From assembly GCA_037443945.1 (NCBI GenBank), contig JBBINH010000002.1:33644-97643 (forward strand): DNA of 64,000 bases, read 5' to 3'. Below the pieces are notes generated by a model. That model had not been told where the DNA came from, searched no databases, and saw only the letters and a list, made by a program, of their open reading frames with translations. Of the stretch, positions 21,700 to 60,821 are shown piece by piece. This DNA comes from Caldilineales bacterium (GTDB lineage: Bacteria; Chloroflexota; Anaerolineae; J102). Position 1 is the first letter of the stretch; the number at the start of each line of letters is the position of its first letter. A program made the translations under genes and the position numbers.

Positions 21700-21736
21700 G
21701 GTCTTTTTCCCCGGAAAGCCGCAAAACTGCGCGTTC

Positions 21737-21943
21737 TCAAAAACCGAAGCGGAACCAATCGGTATTGAACAGGATACCGCACAACAGGGTGAGAAAAACA
21801 CACAGCAGCAGAAATCCACAACCACAGCCGCTGATGGAGCAGCCCCGGCCAAAGCCGAAGTTGTCCTGCAACCAGTCGAACAACCAGGCCAGGGCGATGA
21901 TCTCCAGCAACCCGGTCAGACAGCCTTGATCGCGTCGGTCCAT
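21737..21943 (-). CDS. possible small Cys-rich hydrophobic peptide (68 aa), hypothetical
   Basis: An ORF in the 287-nt gap upstream of murE, in the same orientation. It contains 'GCSISGCGCGFLLLCVFLTLLCGILF'. I found no SD or homology, so this is weakly supported. Confidence 0.25.
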   Translation of the reverse strand: MDRRDQGCLTGLLEIIALAWLFDWLQDNFGFGRGCSISGCGCGFLLLCVFLTLLCGILFNTDWFRFGF

Positions 21944-21985
21944 AGGAGTACGTAGGGGATGTTGAAAGGAGAAGGGCAGGCGATA

Positions 21986-24499: not shown

Positions 24500-24950
24500 A
24501 AGGATCGATTTCCAGGGGAGGAGCAGATCAACAAGAGAGGGGCAAGGGATTTCTCGTCGGGTTATGGGAGTGGGCGACACTGCAAGCATAACACAAAACC
24601 GACCCGATCCCCGGAACGCACAGGGCGCGGTCGCGCCGAGGCGCTTTTTCTGTCGCAATCGGTCCGGTGTCGAAGTCCGAGGGAGCGCCTCGCAGGCCGA
24701 ACCGTGCGGATGCTTCTGTCGAGAAGACGGTTAGAAGCGACGACGCCTTTCATCCGGTGGGTTAAGGCTTGGCTCTCTTCTGTTCTCTGTGATACAAGTG
24801 CCCTGCTTCCTGCCGTGCGCAGGGAAAACGGCCTTCCCTCAGGAATCCCACGACCGCTTTGAACAGCCTGACCCCAACCGGACTCCGGGTCTACCGTCTC
24901 ACCCGCAAGGCCGGAGGTCGGGGCGTTCTTTCGTATGACGAGGATCATGT

Positions 24951-26402
24951 ATGAGCATTCAATTCGGTACGGACGGTTGGCGCGCCGTCATCAGCGATGA
25001 ATTCACCTTTGCCAATGTGCGACGGGTGGCTCAGGCCATTGCCGACTGGGTTCAGATCGAAGCCGAACGGCGTTCCTGGGATGGACGCCCGCTCGTGGTG
25101 GTAGGCTTCGACACTCGGTTTTTGTCCGACCGCTATGCGGCTGCCGTGGCCGAAGTCCTGGCCGGCAACGCCATCGGCGTCCTGCTATGCCGGCATTTTG
25201 CTCCCACCCCGGCCGTCTCCTACGCTATCGTGGCCCACCAGGCCATCGGCGGCGTCATGATTACGGCCAGCCATAACGCGCCACGCTACAACGGCATCAA
25301 GCTCAAGGCCGCTTACGGCGGTTCGGCCGGTTCGGCCGATGCCCGTCGGGTGGAGGCTCTGTTGGCGGCCCAGGAGCGTGAGGGCCGCAAACCGCGGGTG
25401 TTGGCTTTGACGACGGCCGAACAGCAGGGTTTAGTCGAGCGTTTTGATCCCTACCCCGCCTACGCCGATCACGTGCGTCGCCTGGTCGATCTGCAAGCCA
25501 TAGCACGCGCCCGGCTGCGTCTGGTTGTGGATGCCATGTACGGCGCCGGGATGGGCTACACCGACCGTCTGTTGGCCGAGGTCGGCATCGAACCCTTACG
25601 GTTACACCACGAGCTCAATCCCGGTTTCGGCGGTTTGCATCCTGAACCTATCGCCCGCCATCTGCACGCGCTATGCAGTTGCATGGGAAACGGCAAGTTT
25701 GATTTGGGTCTGGCGACCGACGGGGATGCCGACCGTATCGGCGCTGTGGGACCCAACGGCCGTTTTGTGGATCCCCATCGCATTATGGCCCTCGTTCTCG
25801 ATGACATGCTCCGGCGCGGGCAGCGAGGAGACGTGGTCAAGACGGTCAGCACGACGCAAATGCTCAATCTCTTGGCCGAACCCTACGGTTTGACCGTGCA
25901 CGAAACCCCGGTTGGTTTCAATCATATCTCCGAGCTGATGCTGAAGGGCGATGTCCTTATCGGCGGTGAGGAATCCGGGGGCATTTCCGTGCGGCATCAC
26001 ATTCCCGAAGGGGATGGTGTGCTGATGGGGCTGCTGCTGGCCGAGATCGTGGCCCGTAACGGCGGTGACATCCAGGCCCTGATCGGGGCGATCATGGCAC
26101 GGGTAGGCCGTTTTGTCTACGCCCGCCACGATTATCGCGTGCAGCCCTTTGCCAAGACCGAACTGATTCAGCGCTTGATCGCCACCGCACCGACTCGATT
26201 AGCCGATCACGAGGTGGTCGGTTTGAACGCGCGGGATGGGGTCAAATACGTGCTCGATGATCAGAGCTGGCTGCTCATCCGACCTTCGGGCACCGAGCCC
26301 GTGCTGCGGGTGTATGCCGAAGCACGCGATGAGGAGGAGCTGCAGCAGCTGCTGAGCGAAGGCACCCGCCTAACCGGCTATTCGGACGCCGACCTGACCT
26401 GA
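24951..26402 (+). CDS. phosphoglucomutase/phosphomannomutase (alpha-D-phosphohexomutase)
   Basis: The canonical active-site loop TASHNAPRYNG, the metal-binding DGDADR and the GEESGG sugar-binding loop are present. Confidence 0.9.
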   Translation: MSIQFGTDGWRAVISDEFTFANVRRVAQAIADWVQIEAERRSWDGRPLVVVGFDTRFLSDRYAAAVAEVLAGNAIGVLLCRHFAPTPAVSYAIVAHQAIGGVMITASHNAPRYNGIKLKAAYGGSAGSADARRVEALLAAQEREGRKPRVLALTTAEQQGLVERFDPYPAYADHVRRLVDLQAIARARLRLVVDAMYGAGMGYTDRLLAEVGIEPLRLHHELNPGFGGLHPEPIARHLHALCSCMGNGKFDLGLATDGDADRIGAVGPNGRFVDPHRIMALVLDDMLRRGQRGDVVKTVSTTQMLNLLAEPYGLTVHETPVGFNHISELMLKGDVLIGGEESGGISVRHHIPEGDGVLMGLLLAEIVARNGGDIQALIGAIMARVGRFVYARHDYRVQPFAKTELIQRLIATAPTRLADHEVVGLNARDGVKYVLDDQSWLLIRPSGTEPVLRVYAEARDEEELQQLLSEGTRLTGYSDADLT

Positions 26403-33246: not shown

Positions 33247-35721
33247 ATGATGAGTAAGAAGGGGTTCCTTCTTCTCAGCACGGCGTTTATTGTCGTGACT
33301 TTGATGGCTTTTGCCGTGGCGGCTGACGAGCCGGTGCTTCCGCCGGTGGAGCCGACCACGGTCGCACCGGCCCAACCCGAAGCAAGTGATTATGCCCCTC
33401 CGCCGGCAGGACAGCCGGGCTTTTATATCGAGAACGGTCGTTTCAACATCTTGCAGCCGGCCCAGGCCTATTATGCGACCGGGTCGTTCGGTTTTTGGGC
33501 CTGGTCTTCCCTCAATCCAGCGCGAGGGAGTTACAACTGGGAGATCCTCGATACCTGGGTGGCCGACAGCATCGCTGCCGGCTATGAAACCGTCGGCATT
33601 GCCCTCAAAACCTATACCGGTCGTTTTGTGGGATGCCAGTTTCAGGGCATCGATATGACCCCGGCCTGGGTGCTGGCCGGTCAGGACGGTATCCGTGGCA
33701 ACGCCGACGATCCTGTCCTGTTGTCAAGTGTGCCGGATCGTCGTGATTGCGATAGGGATGGCAATCCCGATAACGGTCCCTGGTACCTGATCCAGTACAA
33801 CCACCCTTACTACAAAAGCAACTACATTGCCTTCATCAACGCGTTGGCCGACCATTTGTTCAGCGCGCCTTATCGCGACCGGGTGGCCTGGGTGGCCATC
33901 GGCACGGGCAAGGATGGTGAGAACAAACCGGCCGATGATGACGACGATCCCACCTTGCTGGCCAACGGTCTTAGCACCGAGGCCTGGATCTTGCATGTCC
34001 AGGAGATTATCGAGACGTATCGCGCAGCGTTTTACGATGGGTCGGGATTCCCGCGCATTCAACTCGTCTTGCAGAATGCGCCCTTTTATCGCAGCCCCAT
34101 CGAGCGGCGCGACCTGGCCAATTACGCGGCCACGCGGCGGATTGGGCTTTCCATCAACAACATTACGTCCGATTTCAACTCGGTTGAATCATGCGCCAGT
34201 CCCAATTCGAACACGCGTTGCACGGGCATCTACGATCAGGCGCGGCAATACAACAGCATTGCTCCGATCATGCTGGAAAGCTACGCGTACATGATGCCCA
34301 CACCCAACGAGTTTTACTGGTCCATGGCGCGCGCGCTGGATGTCAGGGCCGACTACATCCGCCTTTCCAGTTTCTGGAATACCCAGACCAATCCCGACAA
34401 TTTGACCACGGCCGAATGGGCCAGCCGTTACATCGGGACGGGCTTCGCCGAAGGCCAGCGCCGACCGCCCAGCGTGTGGTCGCGCATGCGAGAGCATAAA
34501 GACCCCTGCTACCTGGGTTACGCCTTCATCAATCCCTGTAACTTCTGGCCGACCAACGGCAACTACGAGTTTTATCTCACCCAGCTCCACCTGCCCCAGT
34601 TCGGCGGTGTGACCATCCCCGTCACCGATGACGATCGCATCCGCATCACCGGCTGGGATCACAGCGAATCGAACGTGGTTGACAAGCGCTGGCACTACAA
34701 CACGAGTCCCTTTGACCAGAAATTGCGCGATGCCGGTCTTTTCGCCCTGACCCCCAGCGGTGTCCAGAATCAGGTCGATCCGGGGTGGGTGGCACGGCGT
34801 AGCGATCAGGCCACGAATAACACCAAGTTCATTTTCGACGCCGCCGATCGCTACTTTGCCCGCTCGCAGCCGCCGGCCGAAAGCACCTTCAAGGTCGTCA
34901 TCACCGTGACCTATCTGGATGTGGGCAACGACCAGTGGTTGCTGGTCTACGATTCGACGACAGGGCCCAGGGCGGCCACGGTGTACGCCATCAACGATTG
35001 GAATGTGCGCCGTGGATTGGCCGTGGACGACTTTTTACCGGTAGATGGCCGTGTCCTGCCTCCGGTCAATTACGTCCAGAAGACCGGAACGAATCGCTGG
35101 AAGGTGGCGACCTTCGTCATCGAGGACGGCAACTTTAACAACCTGGTGCTCAACGAGGCCCGTGCCGACTTTTACATCGAATCCCGCAGTCCCAGCGGCC
35201 AGAAGGACGGCGATGAGTACATCCACCACGTGGATGTGCGCAAGGTGGACGAATTTATCGAAGTAACACCGACGCCGACGCCGACCACGGCGCCGACGGC
35301 CACGCCCACGCCGACGGCCACACCGATGCCGACGGCCACGCCCACGCCTACCGCCACCCCGACGCCCACACCCTCCACCGGCAGCATCGTCGGCAAGGTC
35401 TATTACGATCGCAACCAGAACCGTCAGCCCGATCCCGGCGAGGGTTTGGCCGGCGGTGTGTTGGTCCTGAGCGGTCCTACCCATGCGCAGACCACCTCGG
35501 CGGTAGACGGCTCGTATGGCTTCCATGCCTTGCCGCCCGGTAGCTACGTGCTACGTTCGACGCCGCCGGCAGGCTACAACCGGGCCGATCCCGACACGGT
35601 GGCGCTTTTCGTCCAGGCCAATACCATCTTGACCTGGGACTTTGCCCACGAACCTCTACCGGATACGACGCCTTCGCCTCCCGCAGGCGAGCCCCTCTAT
35701 CTGCCGCTGTTACGGCGTTAG
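33247..35721 (+). CDS. secreted GH42-like TIM-barrel (glycoside-hydrolase-like) protein with Thr/Pro linker and C-terminal SdrD B-like domain; ends in YLPLLRR
   Basis: Signal peptide MMSKKGFLLLSTAFIVVTLMAFAVA. 'WAWSSLNPARGSYNWEILDTWV' resembles the GH42/GH35 N-terminal barrel signature (W..EP..G.Y.W..LD). It is paralogous to the N-terminal ~600 aa of the giant protein. A TPTPTP linker and 'VYYDRNQNRQPDPGE...GSYGF' SdrD-B domain follow. Confidence 0.75.
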   Translation: MMSKKGFLLLSTAFIVVTLMAFAVAADEPVLPPVEPTTVAPAQPEASDYAPPPAGQPGFYIENGRFNILQPAQAYYATGSFGFWAWSSLNPARGSYNWEILDTWVADSIAAGYETVGIALKTYTGRFVGCQFQGIDMTPAWVLAGQDGIRGNADDPVLLSSVPDRRDCDRDGNPDNGPWYLIQYNHPYYKSNYIAFINALADHLFSAPYRDRVAWVAIGTGKDGENKPADDDDDPTLLANGLSTEAWILHVQEIIETYRAAFYDGSGFPRIQLVLQNAPFYRSPIERRDLANYAATRRIGLSINNITSDFNSVESCASPNSNTRCTGIYDQARQYNSIAPIMLESYAYMMPTPNEFYWSMARALDVRADYIRLSSFWNTQTNPDNLTTAEWASRYIGTGFAEGQRRPPSVWSRMREHKDPCYLGYAFINPCNFWPTNGNYEFYLTQLHLPQFGGVTIPVTDDDRIRITGWDHSESNVVDKRWHYNTSPFDQKLRDAGLFALTPSGVQNQVDPGWVARRSDQATNNTKFIFDAADRYFARSQPPAESTFKVVITVTYLDVGNDQWLLVYDSTTGPRAATVYAINDWNVRRGLAVDDFLPVDGRVLPPVNYVQKTGTNRWKVATFVIEDGNFNNLVLNEARADFYIESRSPSGQKDGDEYIHHVDVRKVDEFIEVTPTPTPTTAPTATPTPTATPMPTATPTPTATPTPTPSTGSIVGKVYYDRNQNRQPDPGEGLAGGVLVLSGPTHAQTTSAVDGSYGFHALPPGSYVLRSTPPAGYNRADPDTVALFVQANTILTWDFAHEPLPDTTPSPPAGEPLYLPLLRR
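35266..35375 (+). repeat. Thr/Pro-linker coding low-complexity repeat (ACNCCN)n
   Basis: Reiterated ACG CCG ACS CCS units encode [37 protein letters not shown]. Confidence 0.8.
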
Positions 35722-35774
35722 CCCGGCGGCAAGGCATTGACCACCCGCCTTCATTCTCGTCCGTTCCTGCCCTT

Positions 35775-37085
35775 ATGGTTGGGCAGGAACGGAACGATTC
35801 CGGTTTCCCTGTGCCCGGTTTGTGGCGCTTCGTGTTGCTCCTCGTTAGTTTGGCCATCTGCGGTGGCAGCGTGCTCTTCCTCCCGGTCGCTGCCCATCCG
35901 GCTCGTTCACCGGTTGGCATGGCCGTCTCCACCGAGGCGACACCCATCCCCCGTGTTTATTGTGGGGGTGTCTATCGTGGCGATACGAGCACCGGCACGG
36001 CTCAGATCGATCGCTATGCCTGTCGACCCGATTGGCCCGAAACCGGACCGGAACATTTCTATCGCCTGTCCATCCCGACGACACAATCGCTGACCCTGGT
36101 CCTGAGTCATCCCCCCGGTCTGGATCTGGATGTGTTCTTGCTGGAGCATGAACAGCTCGATCGTTGCCACGCTGCCGATGCCACGCTGGCATTGGCCGCC
36201 TTAGCACCGGGTCCACATCGCATTGTCGTGGATGGTTTTGCCGACAGTCAGGGACCTTATACGCTTGCCGTGCTCTGTGAAGGGCCACCCTTGGCCACAC
36301 CAACCCCGACCGATACGCCGCTGCCGACGGCTACCCCGACGCCGACTCTCGTCCTGACGGCTACGCCGACCCCCACCCGCACGCCCACGCGGCCGCGCCT
36401 CAGCTACGATGCCTTTTTCCCGGCCCAGCGCCGCCGCTATCCCCCGCCTACGCCGCTGCCGACTACCCTTATCCTCCAGCCCGGTCGGCAAGGCTACGAC
36501 GGACTCGCCGATAGCTACCTCAGCGCTTGGGCTATTACCGAGAATTATGCTAATGTAGACCGGCTTGCACTTCGGCAGTCCGACATCATGGCTCCGGTCT
36601 TACGCTTCCGGCTTGATGGTCTGCCTGCCGATGCCCGCATTGTCGAGGCACGTTTGAGCCTGTGGGCCTTAGCCCGCAGTAACGACAACCCGGCCACGGC
36701 CGGCCTCTATCCCCTTCATCGTCCCTGGCAGGTGGATGAAGTCACCTGGCAGCAGGCGGCCAACGGTGTCCCGTGGGCCCAACCCGGCGCCAACGGCGTA
36801 CCCGTCGACCGGGGAGGCGTGCCTCTGGCCGTGCAGACGGTGACGGAGACGGGCCGCTGGTATGAGTGGGACCTGACCCCGCTTGTCCAGGCCTGGGTTG
36901 CCGACCCTACAACCAATCATGGCATGATCCTCAAAGCTCTGGCCATACCCCGCGTGCTCTACACTTTTGCGGCAGCCGAATATCACAACCCGGCTGCCCG
37001 ACCTCGGTTGCTCATCCGTTACTGGACTCCCACCCCATCCCACCAGGCCTCAACCGTGCCGTTTACGCCATCGCCGTCCCCCTGA
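35775..37085 (+). CDS. secreted protein with PPC (pre-peptidase C-terminal)-like domain, TP linker and DNRLRE-like C-terminal domain
   Basis: Hydrophobic N-terminus. 'FYRLSIP...LDLDVFLLEHEQ...GPYTLAV' resembles the PPC domain. The C-terminal 'WYEWDLTPLVQAWVADPTTNHGMIL' matches the DNRLRE-type module also present in the giant protein. Confidence 0.65.
   Translation: MVGQERNDSGFPVPGLWRFVLLLVSLAICGGSVLFLPVAAHPARSPVGMAVSTEATPIPRVYCGGVYRGDTSTGTAQIDRYACRPDWPETGPEHFYRLSIPTTQSLTLVLSHPPGLDLDVFLLEHEQLDRCHAADATLALAALAPGPHRIVVDGFADSQGPYTLAVLCEGPPLATPTPTDTPLPTATPTPTLVLTATPTPTRTPTRPRLSYDAFFPAQRRRYPPPTPLPTTLILQPGRQGYDGLADSYLSAWAITENYANVDRLALRQSDIMAPVLRFRLDGLPADARIVEARLSLWALARSNDNPATAGLYPLHRPWQVDEVTWQQAANGVPWAQPGANGVPVDRGGVPLAVQTVTETGRWYEWDLTPLVQAWVADPTTNHGMILKALAIPRVLYTFAAAEYHNPAARPRLLIRYWTPTPSHQASTVPFTPSPSP
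36295..36395 (+). repeat. Thr/Pro-linker coding low-complexity repeat
   Basis: Encodes [34 protein letters not shown]. Confidence 0.8.
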
Positions 37086-37101
37086 CCAGGAACGAAGCAC
37101 C

Positions 37102-37854
37102 ATGATCATCAGCAAACCTCAGATCCTCGGTTCCAAATTGCGGTCTACTGTGGAGGTTTCTCCTTCCTCAACGACAACCCAGGTTGTTCCCTTTGTCCCA
37201 CCGGCGCCGACGTTGACCGGCTACCGTCTGGCCAAGCGAACCCTGGACGTTGTTGTGGCCTTGTTGGCGCTTATCCTGCTTTCGCCCCTGTTTATCTTGA
37301 TCTGTTTGGCCATCAAACTCGAAGACGGCGGCCCTGCCATTATCAAACAGCGTCGCGTGGGCTTGGGAGGCCGGCCCTTTGCGTTTTACAAGTTCCGCTC
37401 GATGACGTTGGGGGTCGATCATACCCTAGCCCATCGAGCCTTTGCGCAACAGGTTATCCGCGGGGAGATTACCCAGGGGCCTCGTAGCAACGGCGGCGTG
37501 CTCAAACCGACCGGCGATGGTCGTGTGATCACCCGCGTGGGCCGCATTTTGCGCAAGACGAGTCTGGACGAGCTGCCGCAATTGTTCAACGTTCTGATGG
37601 GTACCATGAGTTTGGTGGGGCCGCGGCCCTCGATGGATTACGAGGCCGAAGCTTACTTCGATTGGTATCTGCCCCGGCTGTCGGTTTTGCCCGGGATTAC
37701 GGGGCTGGCTCAGATCAACGGCCGCAGCAGCATCCCCTTCCCCGAAATTGTGCGTTGGGATCTGCGGTATATCGAACAACGCTCGTTCTGGCTCGATCTG
37801 AAAATCTTGCTTAAGACCTTGCCGGTGGTTGTGGGGATGCGGAACACGGGGTGA
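37102..37854 (+). CDS. monotopic polyprenyl-phosphate phosphoglycosyltransferase (bacterial sugar transferase, PglC/WbaP C-terminal-domain type)
   Basis: A single N-terminal membrane helix ([22 protein letters not shown]) is present. 'KFRSM', '[22 protein letters not shown]' and '[12 protein letters not shown]' are hallmark PF02397 motifs. Confidence 0.85.
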
Positions 37855-37876
37855 AGGGCTTTCTGCGGGTACGGCG

Positions 37877-38629
37877 ATGGCGCTGAACCCGGACGATCTG
37901 GCCTATTTTGCCCGCGGGGCGCGGGCGAACCCGCGTTTCTGGGCCCGATTCGGGGGCATGCCCGATCTGAAGGGAAAACGGGTCCTCGATATCGGCTGCG
38001 GACACGGGAGTTTGTGCGTGGATATGGCCGCGGCCGGCGCCGAGCAGGTCGTGGGGTTGGATCTGAACTGTCGTCTGATTGCCTTTGCCGAGGCCTACGT
38101 CGAACGATTTCGGCCGGAACTGCGGTCGCGGCTGCGATTTGCCTGTCAGGATCTGCGCGACTATCCGCCGATGCTGTTCGACCTTATCGTCTCCAAAGAT
38201 ACGTTTGAGCATGTCCTCGATCTGGAGGGCTTGCTGGCCGAAATCCACCGACGGTTGGTGCCCGGAGGGCGGTTGTATGCCGGCTTCGGACCGCTCTACT
38301 ACAGTCCCTTTGGCGATCACGATGCCGTGCGCCTGGGCGTGCGGTTGCCTTGGGCGCACGTGCTCATGGGCGACCGCCGGGTCATTGCCCATGTCAATCG
38401 GCGACGGCGGGTCCCGATCCAGACGATCCGGGAATTGGGCCTCAATCAGCTTCGCCTGCGCGACTACCGCCGCCTTTTTGCGGCCTGCGGCTTACAGACC
38501 GTAGCCTGGTGGACAAACCGCACCGACCATCCTGTCGGCAAAATGTTGGCCGTGCTCGCCCACGTACCCGGTCTGGCCGATTATATGACCTTCAACGTCT
38601 ACTGCATCCTCCAAAAACGCGGCGCCTGA
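37877..38629 (+). CDS. class I SAM-dependent methyltransferase
   Basis: 'VLDIGCGHGSLCVDMAAAGA' is motif I. An acidic residue after beta2 (GLDLN) and motif II (LIVSKDTFEHV) are present. Confidence 0.75.
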   Translation: MALNPDDLAYFARGARANPRFWARFGGMPDLKGKRVLDIGCGHGSLCVDMAAAGAEQVVGLDLNCRLIAFAEAYVERFRPELRSRLRFACQDLRDYPPMLFDLIVSKDTFEHVLDLEGLLAEIHRRLVPGGRLYAGFGPLYYSPFGDHDAVRLGVRLPWAHVLMGDRRVIAHVNRRRRVPIQTIRELGLNQLRLRDYRRLFAACGLQTVAWWTNRTDHPVGKMLAVLAHVPGLADYMTFNVYCILQKRGA

Positions 38630-38737
38630 GCTTGGTCGTGTCGGCACCGCCGTCGGGAAGCGAGTCCCGGTTGTTTTGCGGCAGGGCTTTGGCTTCGTCC
38701 ATGACCGTGGTCTATAATCCGGTAACCGGCGCCAACG

Positions 38738-41700
38738 TTGCGTCTGTTCCTGGGTATCCGTCCGATGTCCCCCTCTCGTTCGTCGCGACGCCTGGTTTTC
38801 CTTTTCCTTGCCATCGGGTTGATCGTGGTGGTGATCGGTGGGGTTGGCCTGCTTTGGTGGCGGTGGTGGCGCCCGCCATCCCCTGTCCCCTCACCCACCG
38901 CTATCGTAACGACCACACCGACGCCGGCTATGCCATCCACACCGACGCCGACCCTAACGCCCACGCCGACGCCGGTAGCGACCGAAGTTGCTGCTCAGGT
39001 GGTGTTTGGCTCGCTGCAGCCGGGGGTGTACGAGGCCTATGATCATCTCAGTCGCGAGCCCGAACTGCGCGGGGGCACCCTGGAATTTCGTTGGAACCAG
39101 GTCGAACCTCTCCAGAACGGCTATAACTGGTCGGTCCTGGACCGGGCCTTGGCGCAACTTCCGACCGGACGCCGCGCCATCCTGCGCCTGATGGTGCGTT
39201 GCAACGAGGGCAACAACGAGGTCTGCACGCCGGATTGGGCGCTGCGCGACGAGTTCCGTCCCATCGTTGCCGCCGTGCCCCCGGCTTGTGGTCTAAGCGC
39301 AAGCACGCGAAAGCACTTGAACTATCTGGACGAGGGTGTCCAGCGCGAGCTTTTGGAGCTGATCCGCCTGTTGGGCCAACGGTACAATGCCGATCCGCGG
39401 GTGACGGCCGTGGAAGTCGGCGTGGGTTATAACGGTGAATCGTCGCCGTGGCCGTTGACCACGCTCTGCGACAAGGAGGCCCAACGCAGCGCTTACGAGG
39501 CCGCCTACGGCCCTACAGGACCGCGACAATGGGCGGATTGGCATCTCCGCCAGCTAGAGGCCTATACGGCCGCTTTCCCGGATCAGACGTTGCTCACCAT
39601 CATCACCGGGGATTACGCCGAGGCCGAGCGCTGGCGGGTGGTGCAGTGGGCCGTGGAGCACGGGGTGGGGCTGATGGTGACCTCGCTGGTGGCCGACTAT
39701 CATAGCAATCGCGGCAAAAGCGGCGATTTTTGTTTTTGGGGTGCCATCACGCGGCCGAGAGCAGCTCCCAGCGCCACCCTGGCCAATGCCTACCTCACCC
39801 AATGGGCGGCCTTGGACCACGTGTGGGAACAGGTCCCTATCGGTTTTGAGTTCAATAACGCCTCAAGCTTGATCGGCCTCGGTATCGAGGCCCACACCTG
39901 GTGGTCGGCCCTTAATGCTCTGGACAAACATGCCGATATCATCGAACCGTTTCGGGCCAACACCCGCCAAACTGCGGTTTGGCGTTTTGTCAATGCCTAC
40001 ATCGGCCAGACGGCCGGCACCACACCGGCGGTCTGGATTGTTTTCCGCAGCAGCAATCCCGCTCTGCCTGACGCCCAATGCGGCGATCTGTTCGATTACT
40101 CGTTTTTCCTCATCCATGAATTGGAGAGGCTGGGGTACGATACCCTCCTGCAGCAACAAAGCGTGCGTCGGGCCGATGCCTTGACACGACGTTTCCAGAT
40201 CGGCCCGGCTACCGATTGGCGCGGGGCTTATGCTCGTGAAACGGCCGACGGATGGCCGGTTTTCAACCTCGATGTCGATGATACGTTCAGCAGGCGCCTC
40301 GGCGGTGCGGTTGAGGTCGTCGTCACCTATTTCGATCATGCCAACGGCGGGCGTTGGGCGCTCGATTACGATAGCCTCACCGGTCCGCGTCGGGCCGGTG
40401 AAGTCGTGCTGACGGGGACCAACACCTGGCGAGAGCAGGTTTTCCGGTTGAACGATGTCCGCTTCGGCAACGGTTTGCCCAAAATGCAGGCCGATAGCCG
40501 TCGGACGGGTTTTGATCTGCGTCTGGACCGGGTGGACGGAACGAACGATAGCTTCCATCGGGTCCTGGTGCGGCCTGTGGGGACGATTCCCCTGATGAGC
40601 CCCACACCACGACCAGGCCGGACACCAACGCCTTCTGCCCCCACACCGACGCCGCAGTCGCCTTTCTACTTTCGCTTCCGACAGGGGATCGACGAGTACC
40701 GAGGCGTGCGCGATACGTTTATCGAGGCCTTTCAGCCCGACGTTGCGCGTGCCAACGAGCCGCTGTTGGGCGTGCGACCTCTCGACCGAGCTGCTGCCTT
40801 GCTGTATTTCGACCTCGGTCGTCTTCCTCCGGATGCCCTTGTCCATCGGGCCTATCTCTATCTGACGCGGCTGGCGCCGGCCGATCAAACCGTCACCCTG
40901 ACCCTCTATCGGTTGTTGCGGTCCTGGAGCGAGATGGCGACCTTCCGCCAGGCCGATACCGACAGCCCCTGGGAGCAGCCGGGTGCTCTCGGCCTGAGCG
41001 ATGCCGCTTCCAACCCCGTGGCCGGGCCGCTACCGGTTGCCCCCGGCGCCGTGGCCCGCTTCGATGTGACCGCCCTGGTCCAGAGTTGGATCGCCGATCC
41101 GATGCTCAATCAGGGCCTGATCGTGCGGGGTGACAGCAACGTTGCGCGACGATACGAGTTTGCCAGCAGCGAAAACCCTACACCGGTTTGGCGGCCGTAT
41201 CTGGAAATCCTTCTAGAAACGCCGACGCCCACGCCAACCCGCACGCCCACCCCGACGCCCACCCCGACTGCCACGCCTACGGCCACAGCCACGCGTACGC
41301 CGACCTCGACCCGCACGCCCACATCCACCCCGACCCCCACCCCCAGTCCCACCGCTACGCCGACGCCGACCCCCACACCGGCCGTACGCCTGCGCGAGGA
41401 GACGGTCTTGCGTCGCGGGCCTGGCTTCAATTTCGATGGACTCGCCACGGCAGCTGCCGACACCGTCCTTCCGCTGCTGGGACGCAGCGCCGACGGCGAT
41501 TGGCTGGCCGTCTGTTGCGTAGGAACCGATCCGGCCTGGGTACCCGGCATGAATGCCGAGGTGTTGCACATCACAACGGAGGCTTTGCCCATCATTAGCT
41601 CGCCACCGACGCCCACACCGACGCCTACGCATACACCGACCCCCACACCCTCGCCGACACCGTCACCGACGGCCACCGCAACGGCGACGCCCACGCCCAC

Positions 41701-43714
41701 GCCGACAGCCACCCCTACGCCCACGCCCACACCCACCGCCACGATAACCCCCACGCCGACGGCTGTGGTACCGGCCTGTCTGCCGTTTCGCCTGTTCGTG
41801 CTCGATATCGGCACCCAACCCAAAGGCGTGGCCGTGGGTAGCCTGGCCGATGGTACCGTCGTGACCGGCATCGGTCTGTACGAAAGCGCTGCTTTGGCTC
41901 TGGTCGTCGGCGATGAGGTCCGCATGATACCCACCGACGGTCGGGGCGCCAACGGTGTGGCGTTTGCCAACGGGCGGTTTTACATGGTCCATCGCGATAG
42001 CCGCAGCGTCAGCATCATCGACCCGGTGGCAGGCCGACAGGTGGGCCGTCTTCCGACGGGTCGGGAACCGTGGGGCGCGGCCGCCACTGCCGACAGGCTC
42101 TATGTGGCCGATTTTGCCGACGACACGGTGAGCGTCTTTGACCTGAATGACGAACAGCTCGTGGTCAGGGTGCCGGTCGCTCCGCTACCGGCCTTTGTGG
42201 CGGCAGCAGCCGATCGGGCGTTCGTGGCCCATCTCGGCGGTCAGATCAGTGTCATCGGTCCGGAGGGCGAGGTGCTTGCCGTTTTCGGACCCCTTATCGG
42301 CGGCGATGCGTTCGGTCTGGCCTACGACGCCGTCCACGATCGGCTGTGGGCGGGAAGCCGTCAGGCGCGCAGCCTGTTGGCCCTCGACGCCAGAACGGGC
42401 GTTGTTCAGGCCCGCTATCTTCTCCCGGCCGCACCGTATGCCGTGGCCTATAATCCGGCGACCGATCAGGTGTTGGCCGTGGATGCCGTTCACAATCGGC
42501 TGATGATCGTCCAGGCAGCCGACGGCGAGCTGCTAGGCCTCTTGCCGCTCAGCACCCAGGGTAGCGATCACGGCGGCCAGGGGCTGGCCGTATCCGCCAA
42601 CCGGATTTTCGTCCCCGCTTTTGCAGCAGGAGCGCTGGACGGTTTCGACGGTGGACCGTGTGTCACACCGACGCCAACGCCGACATCCACTCCTACCCCC
42701 ACGCGCACGCCGACCCCCACACGCACCCCGCGCGTGCGCACGCCGACCCCCACACGCACATCGACTCCGACACCGACCATCACGCCTACGGTTACACCGA
42801 CGGCCACACCCACGCCGACATCGACGCCAACCGTCACAGCGACGCCGACGGCCACGTTTACGCCGAGCCCCACACCCACGCCGACGCCGGCCACGCTTAT
42901 CGCCAAGATTCAAATCGTCTGGCCTCACGGCGGTGCTGCCGTGACCGAGGCCGAGCGGGCGAACATCACCGTCCATCTCTACGAAGACGAGGCTCTGAAC
43001 CCGGTGGTGTGTGACTTCGCCGCCACGGTGCGGTTATGGGCGGCGCGCAACAATGAACCGGCACGTCCCGTTGCCGTCGGTCAGCCTCGTCTGACCGAGC
43101 AGGACGGTCGGCGCTTTACCGTCTGGGATTTCAACGACATCGATGTCGCTGCAGCCCGCGATCCCCGCACTAAACTTCACTTCTTCGTGACCGTGGATGG
43201 CTTCGAGACGCGACACAACGTCTGGACCCATGGCGCCGATGCTCGTACCCTGGCACCTGTCCAGGATATCCCCACCGCCGTGTTGACGACGCTGCCCTCT
43301 GCCCTTGACGCACGCATCGAGATCGTCTGGCCTCACGGTGGCCGAGCGGTAAGCGAAGCTCGACTGGCCAATATCACCGTCTATCTCTTCCGCCGGGATA
43401 CCCTGGAAGCCCTGGGGCCTTCGGTGCGGCCGTTGCCGACGGTCCGTCTGCACAGGGCGCACAACAACGAGCCGGACGGCGGCCGCGCGGCGGCGCCGAT
43501 CGGTATCCCCCGGACCATCACGGCCCAGGGTCGGACCTGGCTGGTCTGGGATTTCAACGATGTGGATGTGGCTGCGGCCAACGATCCGCAGAATCGTATC
43601 TATTTCTGGGTGGATACGGATGAAGTGCCGACGGCGACGAACATCTGGACCCATGGCGTGCTCGGCCTCACGCGGGCGCCGATACAGGATGTGCCGGCCC
43701 GCAGTTGTCGGTGA
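38738..43714 (+). CDS. giant secreted multidomain protein (1658 aa): GH42-like TIM barrel + beta-sandwich + DNRLRE-like domain + TP linkers + YVTN-type beta-propeller + two tandem C-terminal ~135-aa repeats
   Basis: Signal anchor ([23 protein letters not shown]). '[24 protein letters not shown]' is the barrel signature. It is a paralogue of the 33247..35721 N-terminal region (shared ...YDS(L/T)TGPR... block). '[22 protein letters not shown]' is the DNRLRE-like module. About 7 YVTN-like ~40-aa repeats are present (e.g. [28 protein letters not shown]). The C-terminal duplicated unit is 'I(E/Q)IVWPHGG...ANITV(H/Y)L...WDFND(I/V)DVAAA.DP...(F/Y)F(F/W)V..D...T..N(V/I)WTHG'. The real start may be ATG 38765 (MSPSRSS...). 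Confidence 0.8.
38911..38985 (+). repeat. Thr/Pro-linker coding low-complexity repeat
   Basis: Encodes [25 protein letters not shown]. Confidence 0.7.
41218..41384 (+). repeat. Thr/Pro-linker coding low-complexity repeat (ACGCCSACSCCC)n
   Basis: Encodes [54 protein letters not shown]. Confidence 0.85.
41601..41762 (+). repeat. Thr/Pro-linker coding low-complexity repeat
   Basis: Encodes [53 protein letters not shown]. Confidence 0.85.
42663..42897 (+). repeat. Thr/Pro-linker coding low-complexity repeat (longest, ~235 nt)
   Basis: Encodes [77 protein letters not shown]. Confidence 0.85.
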
Positions 43715-43720
43715 ACGGCG

Positions 43721-44908
43721 ATGAGAAGCCAATCCTCCCCAAGCGGGACTGCCGTTTCATCCCTGCCGGCCCGGGCCTCGTGGTGGCGAGCCGAAGGGCT
43801 TTATCTCGCCGGGGTGTCGGTGGCGGCGGCCCTGTTCGTTTTTCTGTACGGTCGCATCGATTACACGGTCGAACCGTATGCCTCGGCCGATCTGTATCAC
43901 TACCGGCAGATAGCCCAGATGGCACCGAGTCTGCCTGTCGGGGTGCAACGCCCCTTTGCTTTTCGTCTCCTGGGGCCCTATTTGGCCGGCCTCTTGCCGT
44001 GGCCCGATGTCACGGCCTTCTATTGGCTCACCGTAGCGACGGCGTTGGTGTTGGCCGTGGCGACCTATGGGTTCTTACGCAGCCATGCCATTCGCCCGGG
44101 AATAGCCGCCCTGACCACGTTCTTTTTTCTGAGCAATCGCTATCTGTTCGGTTTCAACATCTGGGACTATTTTCAGATCAACGATTTGCTGATCCTGCTT
44201 TGTCTCGTGGGGCTGTTTTGGGCCCTGGAACGGCAACGCTACGGCGTGTTTGCCGTTGTGCTGGCCATAGCCGTGTTGGTTCGGGAGACGGCGTTGTTGC
44301 CGATCCCCGTCGCCTTGGTCTATCTGTGGGAACAGGGCCGTCTGCGGACCGATGTCGTTCGTCTACTGGTGGCCTGTTTGCCGGGATTGGCCTTGTTCGG
44401 GCTGGTGCGCACCATCATCGAGCCGGTCGGCGGTCTGGGTCTGGTGGCGGCGGGATTGCGCTACGCGCCCAAGCTGGCCCAACTGGAACCCCTTTTTCGC
44501 TTGGTGATCAATCCTTTCATCCCCTTCGTTTCGTTGCCGTTGCTTTTCTGGCGCAGTAGCCTGGCCTTTTTCCGCCGACGGCGATATCTGCTCGTGTATC
44601 TGGTCCTTGTTTTCATCAGCACCCTTTTCGGCAGCAACAACGAACGACTGATGGCCCCGGCCTTCCTCGTGTTCTATCTGCTTATGGCCGTGCTCATCCA
44701 GCACCACCTGGCCGAGCGTCTGTGGCCGACGGCGCTATTGCCGGTAGGTGCCGCGTTGACCAGCCTCAGCCACGAGTGGGCGCGCTTTCCCCTACCCGAT
44801 CGCCGCCTCACCATCGGGCTGTCTCTTGGCGCCTTGCTTGTCATCACTCTGGTCGTCTTGCCGACGGCCGTGCATCAGGGTTTCGGAGGGCGAGATGGAG
44901 ACGATTGA
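43721..44908 (+). CDS. polytopic integral membrane protein (about 10-11 TM), possible GT-C-like/DUF2029-type membrane glycosyltransferase
   Basis: Highly hydrophobic, with an aromatic-rich periplasmic-loop pattern. It starts 7 nt after the giant gene and overlaps the downstream gene by 14 nt. I found no soluble catalytic-domain motifs. Confidence 0.6.
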   Translation: MRSQSSPSGTAVSSLPARASWWRAEGLYLAGVSVAAALFVFLYGRIDYTVEPYASADLYHYRQIAQMAPSLPVGVQRPFAFRLLGPYLAGLLPWPDVTAFYWLTVATALVLAVATYGFLRSHAIRPGIAALTTFFFLSNRYLFGFNIWDYFQINDLLILLCLVGLFWALERQRYGVFAVVLAIAVLVRETALLPIPVALVYLWEQGRLRTDVVRLLVACLPGLALFGLVRTIIEPVGGLGLVAAGLRYAPKLAQLEPLFRLVINPFIPFVSLPLLFWRSSLAFFRRRRYLLVYLVLVFISTLFGSNNERLMAPAFLVFYLLMAVLIQHHLAERLWPTALLPVGAALTSLSHEWARFPLPDRRLTIGLSLGALLVITLVVLPTAVHQGFGGRDGDD

Positions 44909-46190
44909 CTTGCTCGTTACCCATATCGGTCAGTTGGTCACCCCACCGGCCGCTCCGGCGGCCCTGCGGGGAGCGGCCATGGCCCGGCTCGACACCGTGG
45001 TCGACGCTGCCCTCGCCGTTCATCGCGGCCGGGTTGTCGCCGTTGGCCCTCGTCTCGCCCTGGAGACGGCTTATCAACCGGCGCAGGTACTCGATGCGGG
45101 CGGAGCCTGTGTTACGCCCGGTTTGGTGGATCCGCATACCCATGCCGTTTGGGCAGGCGAACGTCGGGGAGAATTCGAACAGCGCCTTGCCGGTGCTTCC
45201 TATATGGACATTCTGGCCGCCGGAGGCGGTATCCTCGCTACCGTCGCGGCTACCCGTCGTGCCGATCGCGAGCAGATTGTGGCCGAAACCCTTCCGCGTC
45301 TGCAGACTATGCTTGCCCATGGCACCACCACGGCCGAGATCAAGACCGGTTATGGTCTGACTCTGGAGGACGAGCGCAAGCTCCTCGACGCCATCGCCGT
45401 GCTCGATGCCCGTCAGCCCATGGACCTGGTGCCCACCTTTCTCGGTGCCCATGCCGTACCGCCGGAGTTCCGACACAACCCCGAGGCCTATGTGGATCGG
45501 ATTGTCGAGGAGATGTTGCCCGAGCTCGCCTATCTGGTCTACACCGTCACCGGCGAAGACGGATCGTCCTACCGCCAGCGGGCCGTCCATTTTTGCGATG
45601 TCTTTTGTGAGCGTGGGGTCTTCGATCTGGCGCAAACCCGGCGCATCCTGACCGCAGCCAGGGGCCACGGCCTCGATCTCAAGCTCCATGTGGATGAGTT
45701 TGAACCCATGGGTGGGGTCAGTCTGGCCGTGGAATTGGGGGCGATTTCGGTCGACCACCTCGTGCGTACCGGCGAGGAGGAACTGGCACGACTGGCCGCC
45801 TCCAATACCATCGGTGTGGTCTTGCCCGGCACGCCTTTCGGCCTGGGCCATACCCATTTTGCCCCGGCGCGACGGCTGATCGACTTGGGCGGCGCCGTGG
45901 CCCTGGCCACCGATCTGAATCCCGGTACCACATGGTGCGAGTCAATGCCGATGATGATGGCACTGGCGACCCGCTATATGCGCTTGACTCCGGCCGAGGC
46001 ACTCACGGCAGCCACCCTCAATGCCGCCCACGCCATCGGTCTGGGTCGTTTTATCGGCGCCTTGGCCCCCGGCTATCAGGCCGATTTTGTTCTTTGGGAT
46101 ACCGACGATTATCGTGATTTGACCTATCGCTATGGAGTCAATCTGGTCAAAAGCGTCTATAAACGCGGAAAAGAGGTAATAAAGCGTTAA
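44895..46190 (+). CDS. hutI: imidazolonepropionase-family amidohydrolase (HutI-like)
   Basis: 'PGLVDPHTHAVWAGERRGEFEQRLAGASYMDILAAGGGILATV' closely follows the HutI metal-binding/N-terminal signature. Downstream His/Asp ligands are present (HVDEF, DLNPG). The start is set at METIDLLVTH. Confidence 0.8.
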   Translation: METIDLLVTHIGQLVTPPAAPAALRGAAMARLDTVVDAALAVHRGRVVAVGPRLALETAYQPAQVLDAGGACVTPGLVDPHTHAVWAGERRGEFEQRLAGASYMDILAAGGGILATVAATRRADREQIVAETLPRLQTMLAHGTTTAEIKTGYGLTLEDERKLLDAIAVLDARQPMDLVPTFLGAHAVPPEFRHNPEAYVDRIVEEMLPELAYLVYTVTGEDGSSYRQRAVHFCDVFCERGVFDLAQTRRILTAARGHGLDLKLHVDEFEPMGGVSLAVELGAISVDHLVRTGEEELARLAASNTIGVVLPGTPFGLGHTHFAPARRLIDLGGAVALATDLNPGTTWCESMPMMMALATRYMRLTPAEALTAATLNAAHAIGLGRFIGALAPGYQADFVLWDTDDYRDLTYRYGVNLVKSVYKRGKEVIKR

Positions 46191-58488: not shown

Positions 58489-58489
58489 G

Positions 58490-59536: not shown

Positions 59537-59912
59537 TTTGGCCGTCTTATGTGGCTGTATTAGGATTAGAGCTGGCAATCATCGGCGACCGGGGCAGCCT
59601 TTACCGAGTACGTCCCCTTTCTATGCGGATGGGCTGCTTTCGGCCAACGCGAACGCCTCCGAGTCTGTTGAAGATGTAGCGACCGTATAAGACGGGCCTT
59701 TGTCGGCCTGCCTTCGGGTGAGTTTTTGAGATCGCCTCGATCTGTCTTGGGTATCGTGGTTATGCCCTCGCAAGCGGCAGAGACCTCGTTGTAGCGATTC
59801 GCTCCGGGTTTCTGCCTCTCATAACGTCCCTTGCTGTGAGTGTTGAGAGGCTCACAGGGGCGGAGCTTGGGCAAAAAAGGTAACATTATCCGTTACATTT
59901 TTGGCAACAATT

Positions 59913-60803: not shown

Positions 60804-60821
60804 AACCGATCCGAACAGCTC

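Follow-up and report, generated by a model that had tools for sequence, protein, structure and literature searches.

Gene content of the locus

Positions 33247-44908 of the window, the 64-kb stretch of Caldilineales DNA analysed here, hold six co-directional genes, A to F (Table 1), and every gene described in a first-pass annotation of the sequence was recovered at the same place. The flanks, an ABC transporter of NMT1/NitT type upstream and hutI downstream, are unrelated to the block. Long Thr/Pro linkers had been reported in the exported proteins, and this proved correct: A, B and E are the only proteins of the window with Thr/Pro tracts of at least 14 residues. Within the block itself there is neither a GT-A or GT-B transferase nor a flippase or polymerase, and sugar transporters, sugar kinases and utilisation-type regulators are likewise absent. 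The closest Wzx, GT2, GT4, Wzm and Wzt genes lie at 54708-62108, about 10 kb downstream, beginning with a Wzx-type flippase gene (54708-56249) and standing beyond hutI, polA and a helicase gene. A polyprenyl-monophosphate sugar synthase, the usual source of GT-C donors, was not identifiable near the block.

Table 1. Features of the six-gene block. Nucleotide positions are those of the window; residue ranges in E use the TTG start.
Feature	Position	Strand	Description
Gene A	33247-35721	+	Secreted, 824 aa, signal peptide
A, barrel	~aa 55-415		GH-type (β/α)8 barrel
A, beta-sandwich	~aa 545-671		
A, Thr/Pro linker	aa 670-713 (nt 35254-35385)		44 aa
A, Ig domain	C-terminal side of Thr/Pro linker		SdrD_B-like
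A, tail	C-terminus		LYLPLLRR
Gene B	35775-37085	+	Secreted, 436 aa, without catalytic domain
B, Thr/Pro linker	aa 170-209		40 aa
B, DNRLRE/CBM96/Disaggr_repeat domain	aa 245-415		Carbohydrate-binding type
Gene C	37102-37854	+	250 aa, small phosphoglycosyltransferase, predicted monotopic, PglC-type architecture
Gene D	37877-38629	+	250 aa, class I SAM-dependent methyltransferase
Hairpin	38652-38671	+	Terminator-like, consensus match, between D and E
Promoter-like site	38689-38718	+	TTGGCT-18-TATAAT, consensus match, between D and E
Gene E	38765-43714	+	1649 aa from ATG; 1658 aa from TTG at 38738
E, TM helix	N-terminal		Membrane anchor
E, barrel and beta-sandwich	~aa 90-620		GH-type, A paralogue
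E, DNRLRE/CBM96 module	aa 659-824		
E, SH3-like segment	After DNRLRE module		Our own reading; no Pfam match
E, beta-propeller	~aa 1010-1300		NHL/PQQ-type
E, two repeats	aa 1385-1658		~135 aa each, unannotated
E, five Thr/Pro linkers	Between domains		22-85 aa
Gene F	43721-44908	+	395 aa, polytopic, all-helical, without soluble domain

Gene C consists of a catalytic domain alone and a single hydrophobic segment (aa 43-72). Bac_transf (PF02397) matches residues 45-244 of 250 at 9e-62, TIGR03025 matches at 8.5e-78 (C-terminal catalytic part only), and the DELPQ motif is present, reading SLDELPQL in the sequence. With no extra domains, C fits the small PglC-type priming enzyme proposed earlier; it belongs to the Bac_transf phosphoglycosyltransferases, with a predicted monotopic topology, and would load a sugar-1-phosphate onto polyprenyl phosphate. 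Its identity across syntenic loci is 49-73%. The SAM methyltransferase call for D was likewise borne out (Methyltransf_11/25/23, 1e-16 to 1e-17), and a 63% identical counterpart occupies the same position in the relative's locus L009.

The C-terminal part of B matches DNRLRE (1.5e-23), CBM96 (7e-11) and Disaggr_repeat (2.5e-11), with scores above curated thresholds for NF033679 (83.7 bits, cutoff 34) and PF24517 (42.7 bits, cutoff 26). CBM96 is reported to be an alginate-binding module family (PMC9971899). Of the earlier description of B as a secreted PPC/DNRLRE-like protein, the DNRLRE domain and the linker stand, and the N-terminal domain is weakly PPC-like (E = 0.064; 3.8e-4 in the L015 orthologue). 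B and the DNRLRE region of E share 35% identity; E's own match to the domain stands at 6.5e-17, with 62.1 bits for NF033679 (cutoff 34). An orthologue of E in L009 is 36-66% identical depending on the segment, the C-terminal half is 53-62% identical to that in L002, and the L015 orthologue of the N-terminal half carries a CBM9 module besides its CBM96 module.

The hairpin followed by the promoter-like site between D and E weakly suggests that A-D and E-F might be transcribed separately, with the number of promoter-like sites not above shuffled expectation.

A glycoside hydrolase-type barrel in two remote paralogues

A and E are remote paralogues, as first supposed, with a BLASTP match over the beta-sandwich (E = 6e-7) and motifs shared along the barrel. 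The barrels had been called GH42-like. Pfam GH42 matches A marginally (19 bits, cutoff 21) and E at 21.6 bits over profile positions 31-141 of 376 only, so that neither gives a full-length Glyco_hydro_42 match above the gathering score. A profile built from 40 homologues reached GH42 structures only at E = 0.13, and the best structural matches were GH14 beta-amylases, followed by GH35 and GH42. The fold class supported for both proteins is a GH-type (β/α)8 barrel; membership in GH42 was not upheld.

Two glutamates of A, E225 and E344, are invariant in the 40 homologues and across E-type paralogues. Both are candidate catalytic residues. Clan GH-A-like retaining hydrolases carry their two catalytic glutamates after barrel strands 4 and 7; read from the secondary-structure string, E225 follows strand 213-218 and E344 lies within strand 341-346. 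Given the GH-type barrel, the two invariant glutamates and the carbohydrate-binding modules, A and E look like carbohydrate-active enzymes; that they are catalytic, and that E225 and E344 act in the reaction, is predicted.

F resembles GT-C glycosyltransferases

The ATG of F lies 6 nt past the stop codon of E, equivalent to the start "7 nt after" the giant gene given before. Foldseek returned probabilities of 0.92-1.0 against GT-C enzymes and below 0.12 against transporters. The best structural matches include PglB, AglB, STT3, PMT, DPY19 and ArnT, and the multi-helix membrane core matches solved GT-C_A enzymes. Structural matching thus identifies F as a GT-C-fold enzyme of subclass GT-C_A, in an unannotated family, rather than a transporter, in keeping with the GT-C-type look first noted. 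The subclass is expected to have a conserved acidic residue, the general base, in its first extracytoplasmic loop. In F, D57 is present in 90% or more of 58 homologues and is the N-terminus of the first juxtamembrane helix (residues 57-67), right after TM1; compared by described position, it agrees with the catalytic aspartate that PimE (D58), ArnT and PglB have on this helix (PMC12041525). D155, E189 and R309 are further invariant residues.

F could not be placed in an established family. Assignment to the GT39 protein O-mannosyltransferases was not supported: F has no PMT or PMT_2 Pfam match of its own; sub-threshold PMT_2 matches occur in 10 of the 58 homologues (best 8.5e-5), and DUF2079 and EpsG are similarly weak. 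An STT3/PglB/AglB-type oligosaccharyltransferase was rejected for lack of a C-terminal soluble domain, of the WWDYG motif (searched in F as WWD[YW]G) and of an STT3 Pfam match in F or 57 homologues. A PglL/PilO/WaaL-type O-oligosaccharyltransferase or ligase was rejected for lack of a Wzy_C domain (PF04932), and F does not belong to Pfam YfhO. In architecture F is like the minimal all-membrane GT-C_A mannosyltransferases PimE, ALG3, ALG12 and PIG-M (~380-480 aa, no soluble domain), at 8-15% sequence identity and with different taxa and pathways; PimE and F both carry the aspartate where the first juxtamembrane helix has its tip (PMC12041525). The four mannosyltransferases glycosylate lipid-linked glycans rather than proteins.

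Conservation and gene context

The check for conservation in relatives came out positive: A, B, the priming enzyme, a methyltransferase, E and F recur together in Chloroflexota. There they lie inside or beside polysaccharide clusters of Wzx/Wzy type, which also encode GT4 transferases, Wzy_C, a flippase, sugar-modifying enzymes and a CE4 deacetylase. At 9 of 17 Chloroflexota genome loci, F has both an A-like barrel and a priming enzyme no more than 10 kb away, and five of the other eight are contigs shorter than 9 kb. Wherever the order A-B-priming enzyme is kept (Caldilineales, Anaerolineales and Ca. Amarolinea, at 28-73% identity), glycan-biosynthesis genes stand beside it.

Individual loci show F homologues in Wzx/Wzy-type clusters. 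L004/L005 encode four GT4 enzymes, Wzy_C, Alg14/Alg13-like proteins and a priming enzyme, together with a CE4 deacetylase, acetyltransferases, a GFO/IDH oxidoreductase, a methyltransferase, and one A-like and one B-like protein. L006 combines Wzy_C, Wzx, GT4 transferases, a UDP-sugar dehydrogenase and two GHL15 barrels with the F homologue, and L082 reads Wza, Wzc-like, F, Wzy_C (overlapping F by 4 nt), Wzx, GT4, methyltransferase. In L042 and L027 another methyltransferase gene directly adjoins F on one side and a CE4 deacetylase gene on the other. L009 keeps A-B-C-D-E, Thr/Pro linkers included, adjoining genes for Wzy_C, GT4 transferases and sugar-modifying enzymes, and F is absent from that locus. 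Four genomes have E and F side by side: that of the window, L047, L002/L011 and L015, the last with the two genes divergent. Of the annotated contexts of F, about half are something other than a glycan cluster (L007, L008, L020, L081, L083). Outside Chloroflexota, F has no A, E or long Thr/Pro-rich neighbour within 10 kb, and at many metagenome loci no long Thr/Pro-rich neighbour occurs within that distance.

A proposed surface-polysaccharide module

We favour, at a probability of roughly 55%, a reading of the block as the conserved core of a cell-surface polysaccharide assembly and remodelling module of Chloroflexota (Anaerolineae/Caldilineales). The polymer could be a matrix, sheath or wall-associated glycan, and the module would on this best reading hold two unannotated families, the GT-C enzyme F and the GH-like barrel of A and E. 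C, with its well-matched enzyme class, would begin glycan synthesis on the cytoplasmic side, using polyprenyl phosphate as the carrier. GT4/GT2 transferases and a WbpB/WbpD-like oxidoreductase and acetyltransferase, encoded next to the module in relatives and elsewhere in the window's genome, would add further sugars and modifications, and D or a similar methyltransferase would methylate the product. A Wzx-type flippase, the nearest of which is encoded at 54708-56249, would export the lipid-linked glycan. F, by fold a GT-C_A enzyme, would work at the outer face with D57 as general base; its donor would be a polyprenyl-(pyro)phosphate-linked sugar or glycan, and the acceptor is most probably the growing glycan. 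Secreted A, membrane-anchored E, and B would bind the polymer through CBM96/DNRLRE modules, and from their fold, invariant glutamates and synteny A and E would cut, trim or transglycosylate it. The Thr/Pro tracts would then be interdomain linkers of multidomain carbohydrate-active enzymes.

The psl, pel, pga and bcs operons also encode hydrolases, a parallel for A and E. Such hydrolases are a known general feature of exopolysaccharide operons, and in Pseudomonas psl, a Wzx/Wzy-type system, PslG is a membrane-anchored GH39 enzyme encoded beside biosynthetic genes (PMC4928890); like it, A and E would present a clan-GH-A-like barrel with a beta-sandwich. Initiation in psl falls to a Bac_transf phosphoglycosyltransferase (PslA), as with C, and the relatives' clusters hold GT4, Wzx, Wzy_C and Wzz/Wza-type genes. 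Unlike psl, however, the present module includes a GT-C enzyme, its A and E (824 and 1649 aa) are multidomain, Thr/Pro-linked and outside Pfam GH families, and the transferases and flippase of the window's genome are not adjacent to it. The three-component extracytoplasmic systems for glycan modification (GtrA/GtrB/GtrC, GT136 pentofuranose and GacI/GacL) also place a GT-C enzyme in a polysaccharide cluster, for outer-face addition of sugar to a glycan that is complete or still growing (PMC11127046), as F would do. They need an adjacent GT2 polyprenyl-monophosphate sugar synthase and small flippase, neither of which is seen beside F, and the lipid-carrier enzyme here is a phosphoglycosyltransferase, implying a pyrophosphate-linked sugar. 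ArnT/ArnD and Bordetella LgmABC combine a GT-C enzyme and a CE4-type deacylase, with a lipid-linked amino sugar as substrate. ArnT is among the best structural matches of F, and a CE4 polysaccharide-deacetylase gene directly follows F in L004/L005, L042 and L027; the window's block, in contrast, has no CE4 gene and no GT2 gene resembling ArnC, F is without the periplasmic domain of ArnT, and lipid A would be an unexpected acceptor in this lineage.

Several observations count against the polysaccharide reading. The block has no transferase of GT-A or GT-B type, flippase or polymerase of its own, the glycan genes at 54708-62108 are split off from it by other genes, no polyprenyl-monophosphate sugar synthase is identifiable nearby, and about half of the annotated F contexts lack a glycan cluster. 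The E-F adjacency suits an enzyme-substrate or enzyme-partner pair equally well, and the window's Thr/Pro tracts fall on A, B and E only.

Alternative readings

A nutritional role, in which A, B and E degrade exogenous polysaccharide and the proximity of C, D and F is incidental, would suit their typical secreted multidomain build (GH-type barrel, CBM96/CBM9-type modules, Thr/Pro linkers) and a phylum of known polymer degraders. We find it quite unlikely, since the A-B-priming enzyme order persists in three groups, always beside glycan-biosynthesis genes, and the block has no sugar-uptake, sugar-kinase or utilisation-type regulatory genes of its own, the upstream transporter being of NMT1/NitT type. 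A and E might alternatively be surface-layer or sheath (glyco)proteins with the barrel as a non-catalytic scaffold: they are large, exported and conserved, with Ig-like and SdrD_B modules, E is membrane-anchored, the conserved C-terminal tail of A is a possible sorting tag, and A aa 673-811 locally matches NF052345, the NCBIfam model of the Kustd1514 S-layer glycoprotein (9.7e-13). That match reaches 46.4 bits where the curated threshold is 1400, and it does not extend beyond the linker and Ig domain; A was not accepted as a protein of this type. The invariance of two glutamates and many barrel residues in 40 homologues and both paralogues is an active-site-like pattern; a structural role is very unlikely.

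The first-pass annotation had proposed protein O-glycosylation, with C priming a lipid-linked sugar, D methylating it and F transferring it to the Thr/Pro linkers of A, B and E. This idea survives the two computable refutation criteria set out with it, because F is not a transporter and the block is conserved. GT-C_A, the class of F, takes in every known polyprenyl-dependent enzyme of protein N-, O- or C-glycosylation (PglB, AglB, STT3, PMT, DPY19), and such enzymes are among the best structural matches of F. The Campylobacter PglC/PglB pathway joins a same-type priming enzyme to a GT-C enzyme, a logic that the C and F pairing follows. PglB/AglB (N-linked), actinobacterial Pmt (GT39), streptococcal GtrB/PgtC2 and PgfS/PgfM1 share the fold class of F, and O-linked bacterial GT-C systems, the streptococcal enzymes among them, modify Ser/Thr-rich disordered extracytoplasmic segments (PMC11092751). 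The E-F adjacency in four genomes, with its 6-nt gap here, and the restriction of the window's Thr/Pro tracts to A, B and E point the same way. Yet F is a bare 395-aa membrane module without PMT or YfhO membership and without the periplasmic acceptor-binding domain, WWDYG motif or Wzy_C domain that mark known protein-glycosylating enzymes. Known O-glycosylating GT-C enzymes, moreover, take GT2-made polyprenyl-monophosphate sugars rather than phosphoglycosyltransferase products (PMC11092751), and no GT2 synthase for these is evident nearby. Long Thr/Pro-rich neighbours of F are missing outside Chloroflexota and at many metagenome loci, L009 keeps the linkers at a locus without F, and A and E, the supposed substrates, resemble enzymes through their barrel, glutamates and carbohydrate-binding modules. 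Nor was the suggestion of a self-contained system supported: the block lacks a flippase and further glycosyltransferases, and relatives' copies are embedded in Wzx/Wzy-type clusters. The original interpretation as a whole is partly supported, and protein O-glycosylation itself we consider unlikely.

A specific form, in which F is a minimal oligosaccharyltransferase-like enzyme passing a C-primed, pyrophosphate-linked methylated sugar to the Thr/Pro linkers of A, B and E, is quite improbable. If true, it would be a new bacterial O-glycosylation route, using a soluble-domain-free GT-C_A enzyme and a phosphoglycosyltransferase-derived donor, in a phylum whose protein glycosylation is essentially unstudied. 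In a milder variant, membrane-anchored E may act as an extracytoplasmic partner subunit of F, supplying the acceptor-binding modules absent from F.

A six-gene block and its neighbours

All six genes that the first-pass annotation had grouped together are present between 33247 and 44908, on the + strand, with spacings between successive genes of 53, 16, 22, about 135 and 6 nt from A to F. The closest named relatives of their products are encoded by metagenome-assembled genomes of Caldilineales and Anaerolineae. The priming enzyme C comprises the catalytic domain alone plus one hydrophobic segment and carries a DELPQ motif. The N-terminal domain of B is only weakly PPC-like (E 0.064, against 3.8e-4 for its orthologue in L015, an Anaerolineales locus). 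Besides the features tabulated below, E has a DNRLRE module that is 35% identical to that of B, an NHL/PQQ-type beta-propeller, and two unannotated repeats at its C-terminus. Between the domains run Thr/Pro tracts of 22-85 aa, one in A, one long and one short in B, and five in E; across the whole 64-kb window such tracts are confined to these three proteins. Promoter and terminator counts did not clearly exceed the shuffled expectation, so that a division of the block into two transcripts is only a hint.

Genes of the block, with their positions in the window and principal features
Gene	Position	Strand	Length (aa)	Features
A	33247-35721	+	824	Signal peptide at N-terminus; SdrD_B-like domain (weak Pfam match)
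B	35775-37085	+	436	DNRLRE/CBM96/Disaggr_repeat domain, scores well over threshold
C	37102-37854	+	250	Bac_transf phosphoglycosyltransferase (9e-62)
D	37877-38629	+	250	Class I SAM methyltransferase
E	38765-43714	+	1649 (from first ATG)	N-terminal membrane anchor; weak GH42 match
F	43721-44908	+	395	Polytopic; start 6 nt past E stop codon

The block is flanked upstream by an NMT1-type ABC transporter and downstream by a true hutI (imidazolonepropionase; 44895-46190, 464.9 bits against a cutoff of 298). hutI overlaps the end of F by 14 nt and has no further hut genes next to it, and in L009, a relative's locus, hutI (21109-22407) directly follows E; this kept position may be inherited gene order.

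Membrane protein F adopts a predicted GT-C fold

Pfam returned no match for F, and NCBIfam a 30-bit partial match to the 'AZOBR_p60025 cell surface glycopolymer formation' domain (NF046093; cutoff 150), for which a literature search found no paper. A profile of the F family matched nothing in the PDB, and sub-threshold Pfam matches to GT-C families among 58 homologues comprised PMT_2 (10), DUF2079 (7) and EpsG (4). The AlphaFold model, built from a 58-sequence alignment (pLDDT 91.9, pTM 0.90), is all helical without a soluble domain, and its top Foldseek ranks were ArnT, STT3, ALG9, PglB, ALG12, Pmt4 and AglB, at probabilities of about 1.0. The earlier impression that F looks like a GT-C-type transferase held up, and a transporter was ruled out, every transporter scoring below 0.12. 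Because the top structural matches are GT-C enzymes and WaaL- or RodA-type structures are absent from the match lists, the model places F in the GT-C_A subclass of glycosyltransferases, as that term is used in PMC12041525. Asp57, conserved in at least 90% of homologues, stands after TM1 where the first juxtamembrane helix begins. Judged by position, it would correspond to PimE D58 and to the aspartates used for catalysis by ALG6, ArnT and PglB (PMC12041525).

Members of the F family are compact, nearly all of 360-400 aa, and are called 'hypothetical protein' wherever the source names them; no Pfam model exists. A search of 1.84 billion representatives matched 201 clusters (at 50% identity) with E <= 1e-30, a number that rose to 1812 with E <= 1e-3. 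The family occurs in Chloroflexota, Krumholzibacteriota, Verrucomicrobiota and other phyla. The single long member, P0231 (1004 aa), was considered as a Rosetta-stone fusion and proved uninformative, its second polytopic region having no PDB match.

A and E have the anatomy of carbohydrate-active enzymes

The A model (pLDDT 86.5) contains a (β/α)8 barrel whose best PDB matches are glycoside hydrolases, with GH5, GH10 and GH1 lower in the list. A sequence search with this barrel matched no solved structure, GH42 appearing only at E 0.13, and A scored 19 bits against Pfam Glyco_hydro_42, under the cutoff of 21; we therefore rejected GH42 membership for A and E. None of 73 homologues had a Pfam domain in the barrel, and 54 residues are invariant in 40 homologues, each 42-71% identical to A. 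Aligning five barrels of A-type with three of E-type revealed the motif G-x-G-x-x-G-E (E225 in A) after a barrel strand and a second glutamate (E344 in A, 'LESY'/'FEFN') inside another strand, invariant in both groups. With strands placed from a secondary-structure string, E225 and E344 are a candidate catalytic pair in the pattern of clan GH-A-type hydrolases, and the barrel family with its two invariant glutamates is a candidate new hydrolase family. In L015, the orthologue of the N-terminal half of E has a CBM9 module in addition to a CBM96 module, the latter defined as a polysaccharide (alginate)-binding module (PMC9971899). GH-like barrels with invariant glutamates, together with CBM modules, give A and E the anatomy of multidomain carbohydrate-active enzymes, and B resembles a binding protein that belongs to this system too.

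The most conserved part of E is its C-terminus (aa 1385-1658, window 42887-43714), where two tandem repeats of ~135 aa ('IEIVWPHGG...NIT...WDFNDVDV...IWTHG') are 88% identical in L047, a metagenome locus, and 51-66% identical in distant relatives; the repeats also occur in L002, L009 and L015. A Pfam search of these repeats gave no match, leaving a domain family without annotation.

The genes cluster in Chloroflexota relatives

The expectation that the block would stay together in relatives was borne out. L009 (GCA_029782215.1) keeps the order A-B-C-D-E-hutI at 36-73% identity by segment, with E called as two genes and F absent from the locus. Adjoining A-B-C-D-E on the upstream side are Wzy_C, CapK_C, GT4, a hexapeptide acetyltransferase and a GFO/IDH oxidoreductase, along with two epimerases, Alg14/Alg13-like genes and, immediately before A, a 445-aa polytopic protein (L009:8313-9650) that is unclassified. 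The first loop of this protein (FPDSPGY...RSPGFP) gives an impression, from its sequence, of a GT-C enzyme. Compared with F as a possible substitute in this one relative whose locus has no F, it showed no BLASTP similarity and no Pfam or NCBIfam match, and it has no homologue in any other locus examined.

In L004/L005, L012 (Candidatus Amarolinea aalborgensis) and L013, F sits mid-way in a large cluster that has a Wzz-like gene, four genes for GT4 enzymes, Wzy_C, Alg14/13, a CE4 deacetylase, acetyltransferases, GFO/IDH, a methyltransferase, A-like and B-like proteins and a priming enzyme. In L015 the two halves of E are apart: its C-terminal half is followed by a divergently transcribed F and a sulfotransferase, and then come its N-terminal half, a priming enzyme, and B-like, methyltransferase and A-like genes. 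Methyltransferase, F and CE4 deacetylase stand in a row in L042 and L027, and L042 has a priming enzyme, an A-like protein, a hexapeptide acetyltransferase and GFO/IDH 5-9 kb upstream. Immediately upstream of this row, both loci, from different orders of Chloroflexota, carry an SbcC/Rad50-type ATPase gene (L042:6675-9242, L027:6405-8966), an odd kept neighbour of envelope genes. The window, L047 (87% identical) and L002/L011 (57%) all have E immediately 5' of F. Overall, an A-like barrel and a priming enzyme occur within 10 kb of F in 9 of 17 Chloroflexota genome loci, and five of the eight loci lacking them are contigs shorter than 9 kb.

A proposed role in surface polysaccharide assembly

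We favour, at a probability of about 0.55, the reading that the block is a lineage-typical module that assembles and remodels a surface polysaccharide. The folds, the tested family memberships and the synteny are results of the analysis; every substrate and the order of steps we infer. C would prime the glycan on a polyprenyl carrier, methyl groups would be added to it and, in relatives, acetyl and sulfate groups as well, with acetyl groups also being removed; F would transfer a glycosyl residue from a lipid-linked donor at the outer face, and A and E, together with B, would bind and process the polymer. The associated WbpB/WbpD-like enzymes, UDP-sugar dehydrogenase, CE4 deacetylase and sulfotransferase hint, speculatively, at an acidic heteropolymer with a high content of amino sugars. 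In binding and processing the polymer, A and E would parallel the operon-encoded hydrolases of the psl, pel, pga and bcs systems (PMC4928890). The locus represents a variant of polysaccharide-assembly systems already known. Two of its families are missing from current annotation libraries, that of the bare GT-C_A enzyme F and that of the GH-type barrel. Also unusual is the combination of a phosphoglycosyltransferase with a GT-C enzyme and with hydrolase-like proteins that are anchored and multidomain.

The block had first been read as a self-contained system in which C, D and F glycosylate the Thr/Pro linkers of A, B and E. Self-containment did not stand, since no flippase, polymerase or Leloir-type transferase lies inside the block; the nearest such genes (Wzx/MurJ-like flippase, GT2, GT4, GT2, Wzm and Wzt with Wzt_C) are at 54708-62108, beyond hutI, a metallo-beta-lactamase-fold gene, an alpha/beta-hydrolase, polA and a DEAD-box helicase. 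Protein O-glycosylation by the block enzymes we consider improbable, although the kept adjacency of E and F and the restriction of the window's Thr/Pro tracts to A, B and E speak in its favour. F lacks every acceptor-binding feature of the GT-C enzymes that glycosylate proteins. Those known to act in O-glycosylation use polyprenyl-monophosphate sugars made by GT2 synthases (PMC11092751), and no such synthase is evident here, the GT2 genes of the window giving generic matches with EpsD/MftF-like the best. L009 keeps the linker-bearing proteins in a locus without F, and A and E themselves resemble enzymes.

Outside Chloroflexota, moreover, members of the F family show no bond with Thr/Pro-rich proteins. 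Genes like A, B or E are absent from all 19 genome loci there and from most metagenome loci, the exceptions being L047, L048 (on the same contig as L012) and a weak B-like match in L071. Long Thr/Pro tracts near F occur essentially only at loci with homologues of A, B or E. Two loci from other phyla place F among polysaccharide genes, L006 with Wzy_C, Wzx, GT4 genes, two GHL15 barrels and a UDP-sugar dehydrogenase, and L082 with Wza, a Wzc-like gene, Wzx, GT4, a methyltransferase and a Wzy_C gene that F overlaps by 4 nt. F also lies in non-glycan contexts, in L007, L008, L020, L081 and L083.

Activated sludge, sediments and mats hold abundant filamentous Anaerolineae and Caldilineales, of whose envelope and matrix chemistry, to our knowledge, little has been described. 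As a surface-polysaccharide module, the block marks a kept, lineage-typical gene set, provides concrete targets for asking what these bacteria display on their surface, and offers a clean test of a bare GT-C module with a phosphoglycosyltransferase-derived donor. Should the locus simply make polysaccharide, the result is a useful annotation more than a surprise. To a glycobiologist the system would seem plausible, not startling.

Other observations

The region at 54708-62108 constitutes a second polysaccharide cluster, with a Wzm permease and a Wzt ATPase that carries Wzt_C, a glycan-terminus-binding domain. A methyl cap is one known type of terminus recognised by Wzt_C domains, and D is the type of methyltransferase that might add one. 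Nucleotide-sugar genes lie upstream of the block at 21986-26402, where a fused sugar-1-phosphate nucleotidyltransferase/phosphohexomutase (890 aa, minus strand) is followed by a separate PGM/PMM gene; together these could supply nucleotide sugars.

A ends in a short tail, LYLPLLRR (window 35698-35721), which no Pfam or NCBIfam model matches. Its pattern, roughly [LVIT][YF][LMV]P[LMIV][LMI][RQW] plus 0-5 residues, is found at the C-terminus of about 30 of 40 A-family homologues and in L036, L037, L010 and L042:3-860, and is fitted by the C-terminus, VYLPLLRRPSLP (19764-19808), of an S8 subtilase (17754-19808) unrelated to A. Among 1583 ORFs of at least 150 aa in the loci examined, six non-redundant C-terminal matches were observed against 0.17 expected from the internal frequency, and in Chloroflexota the conserved tail might serve as a tag for sorting or processing.
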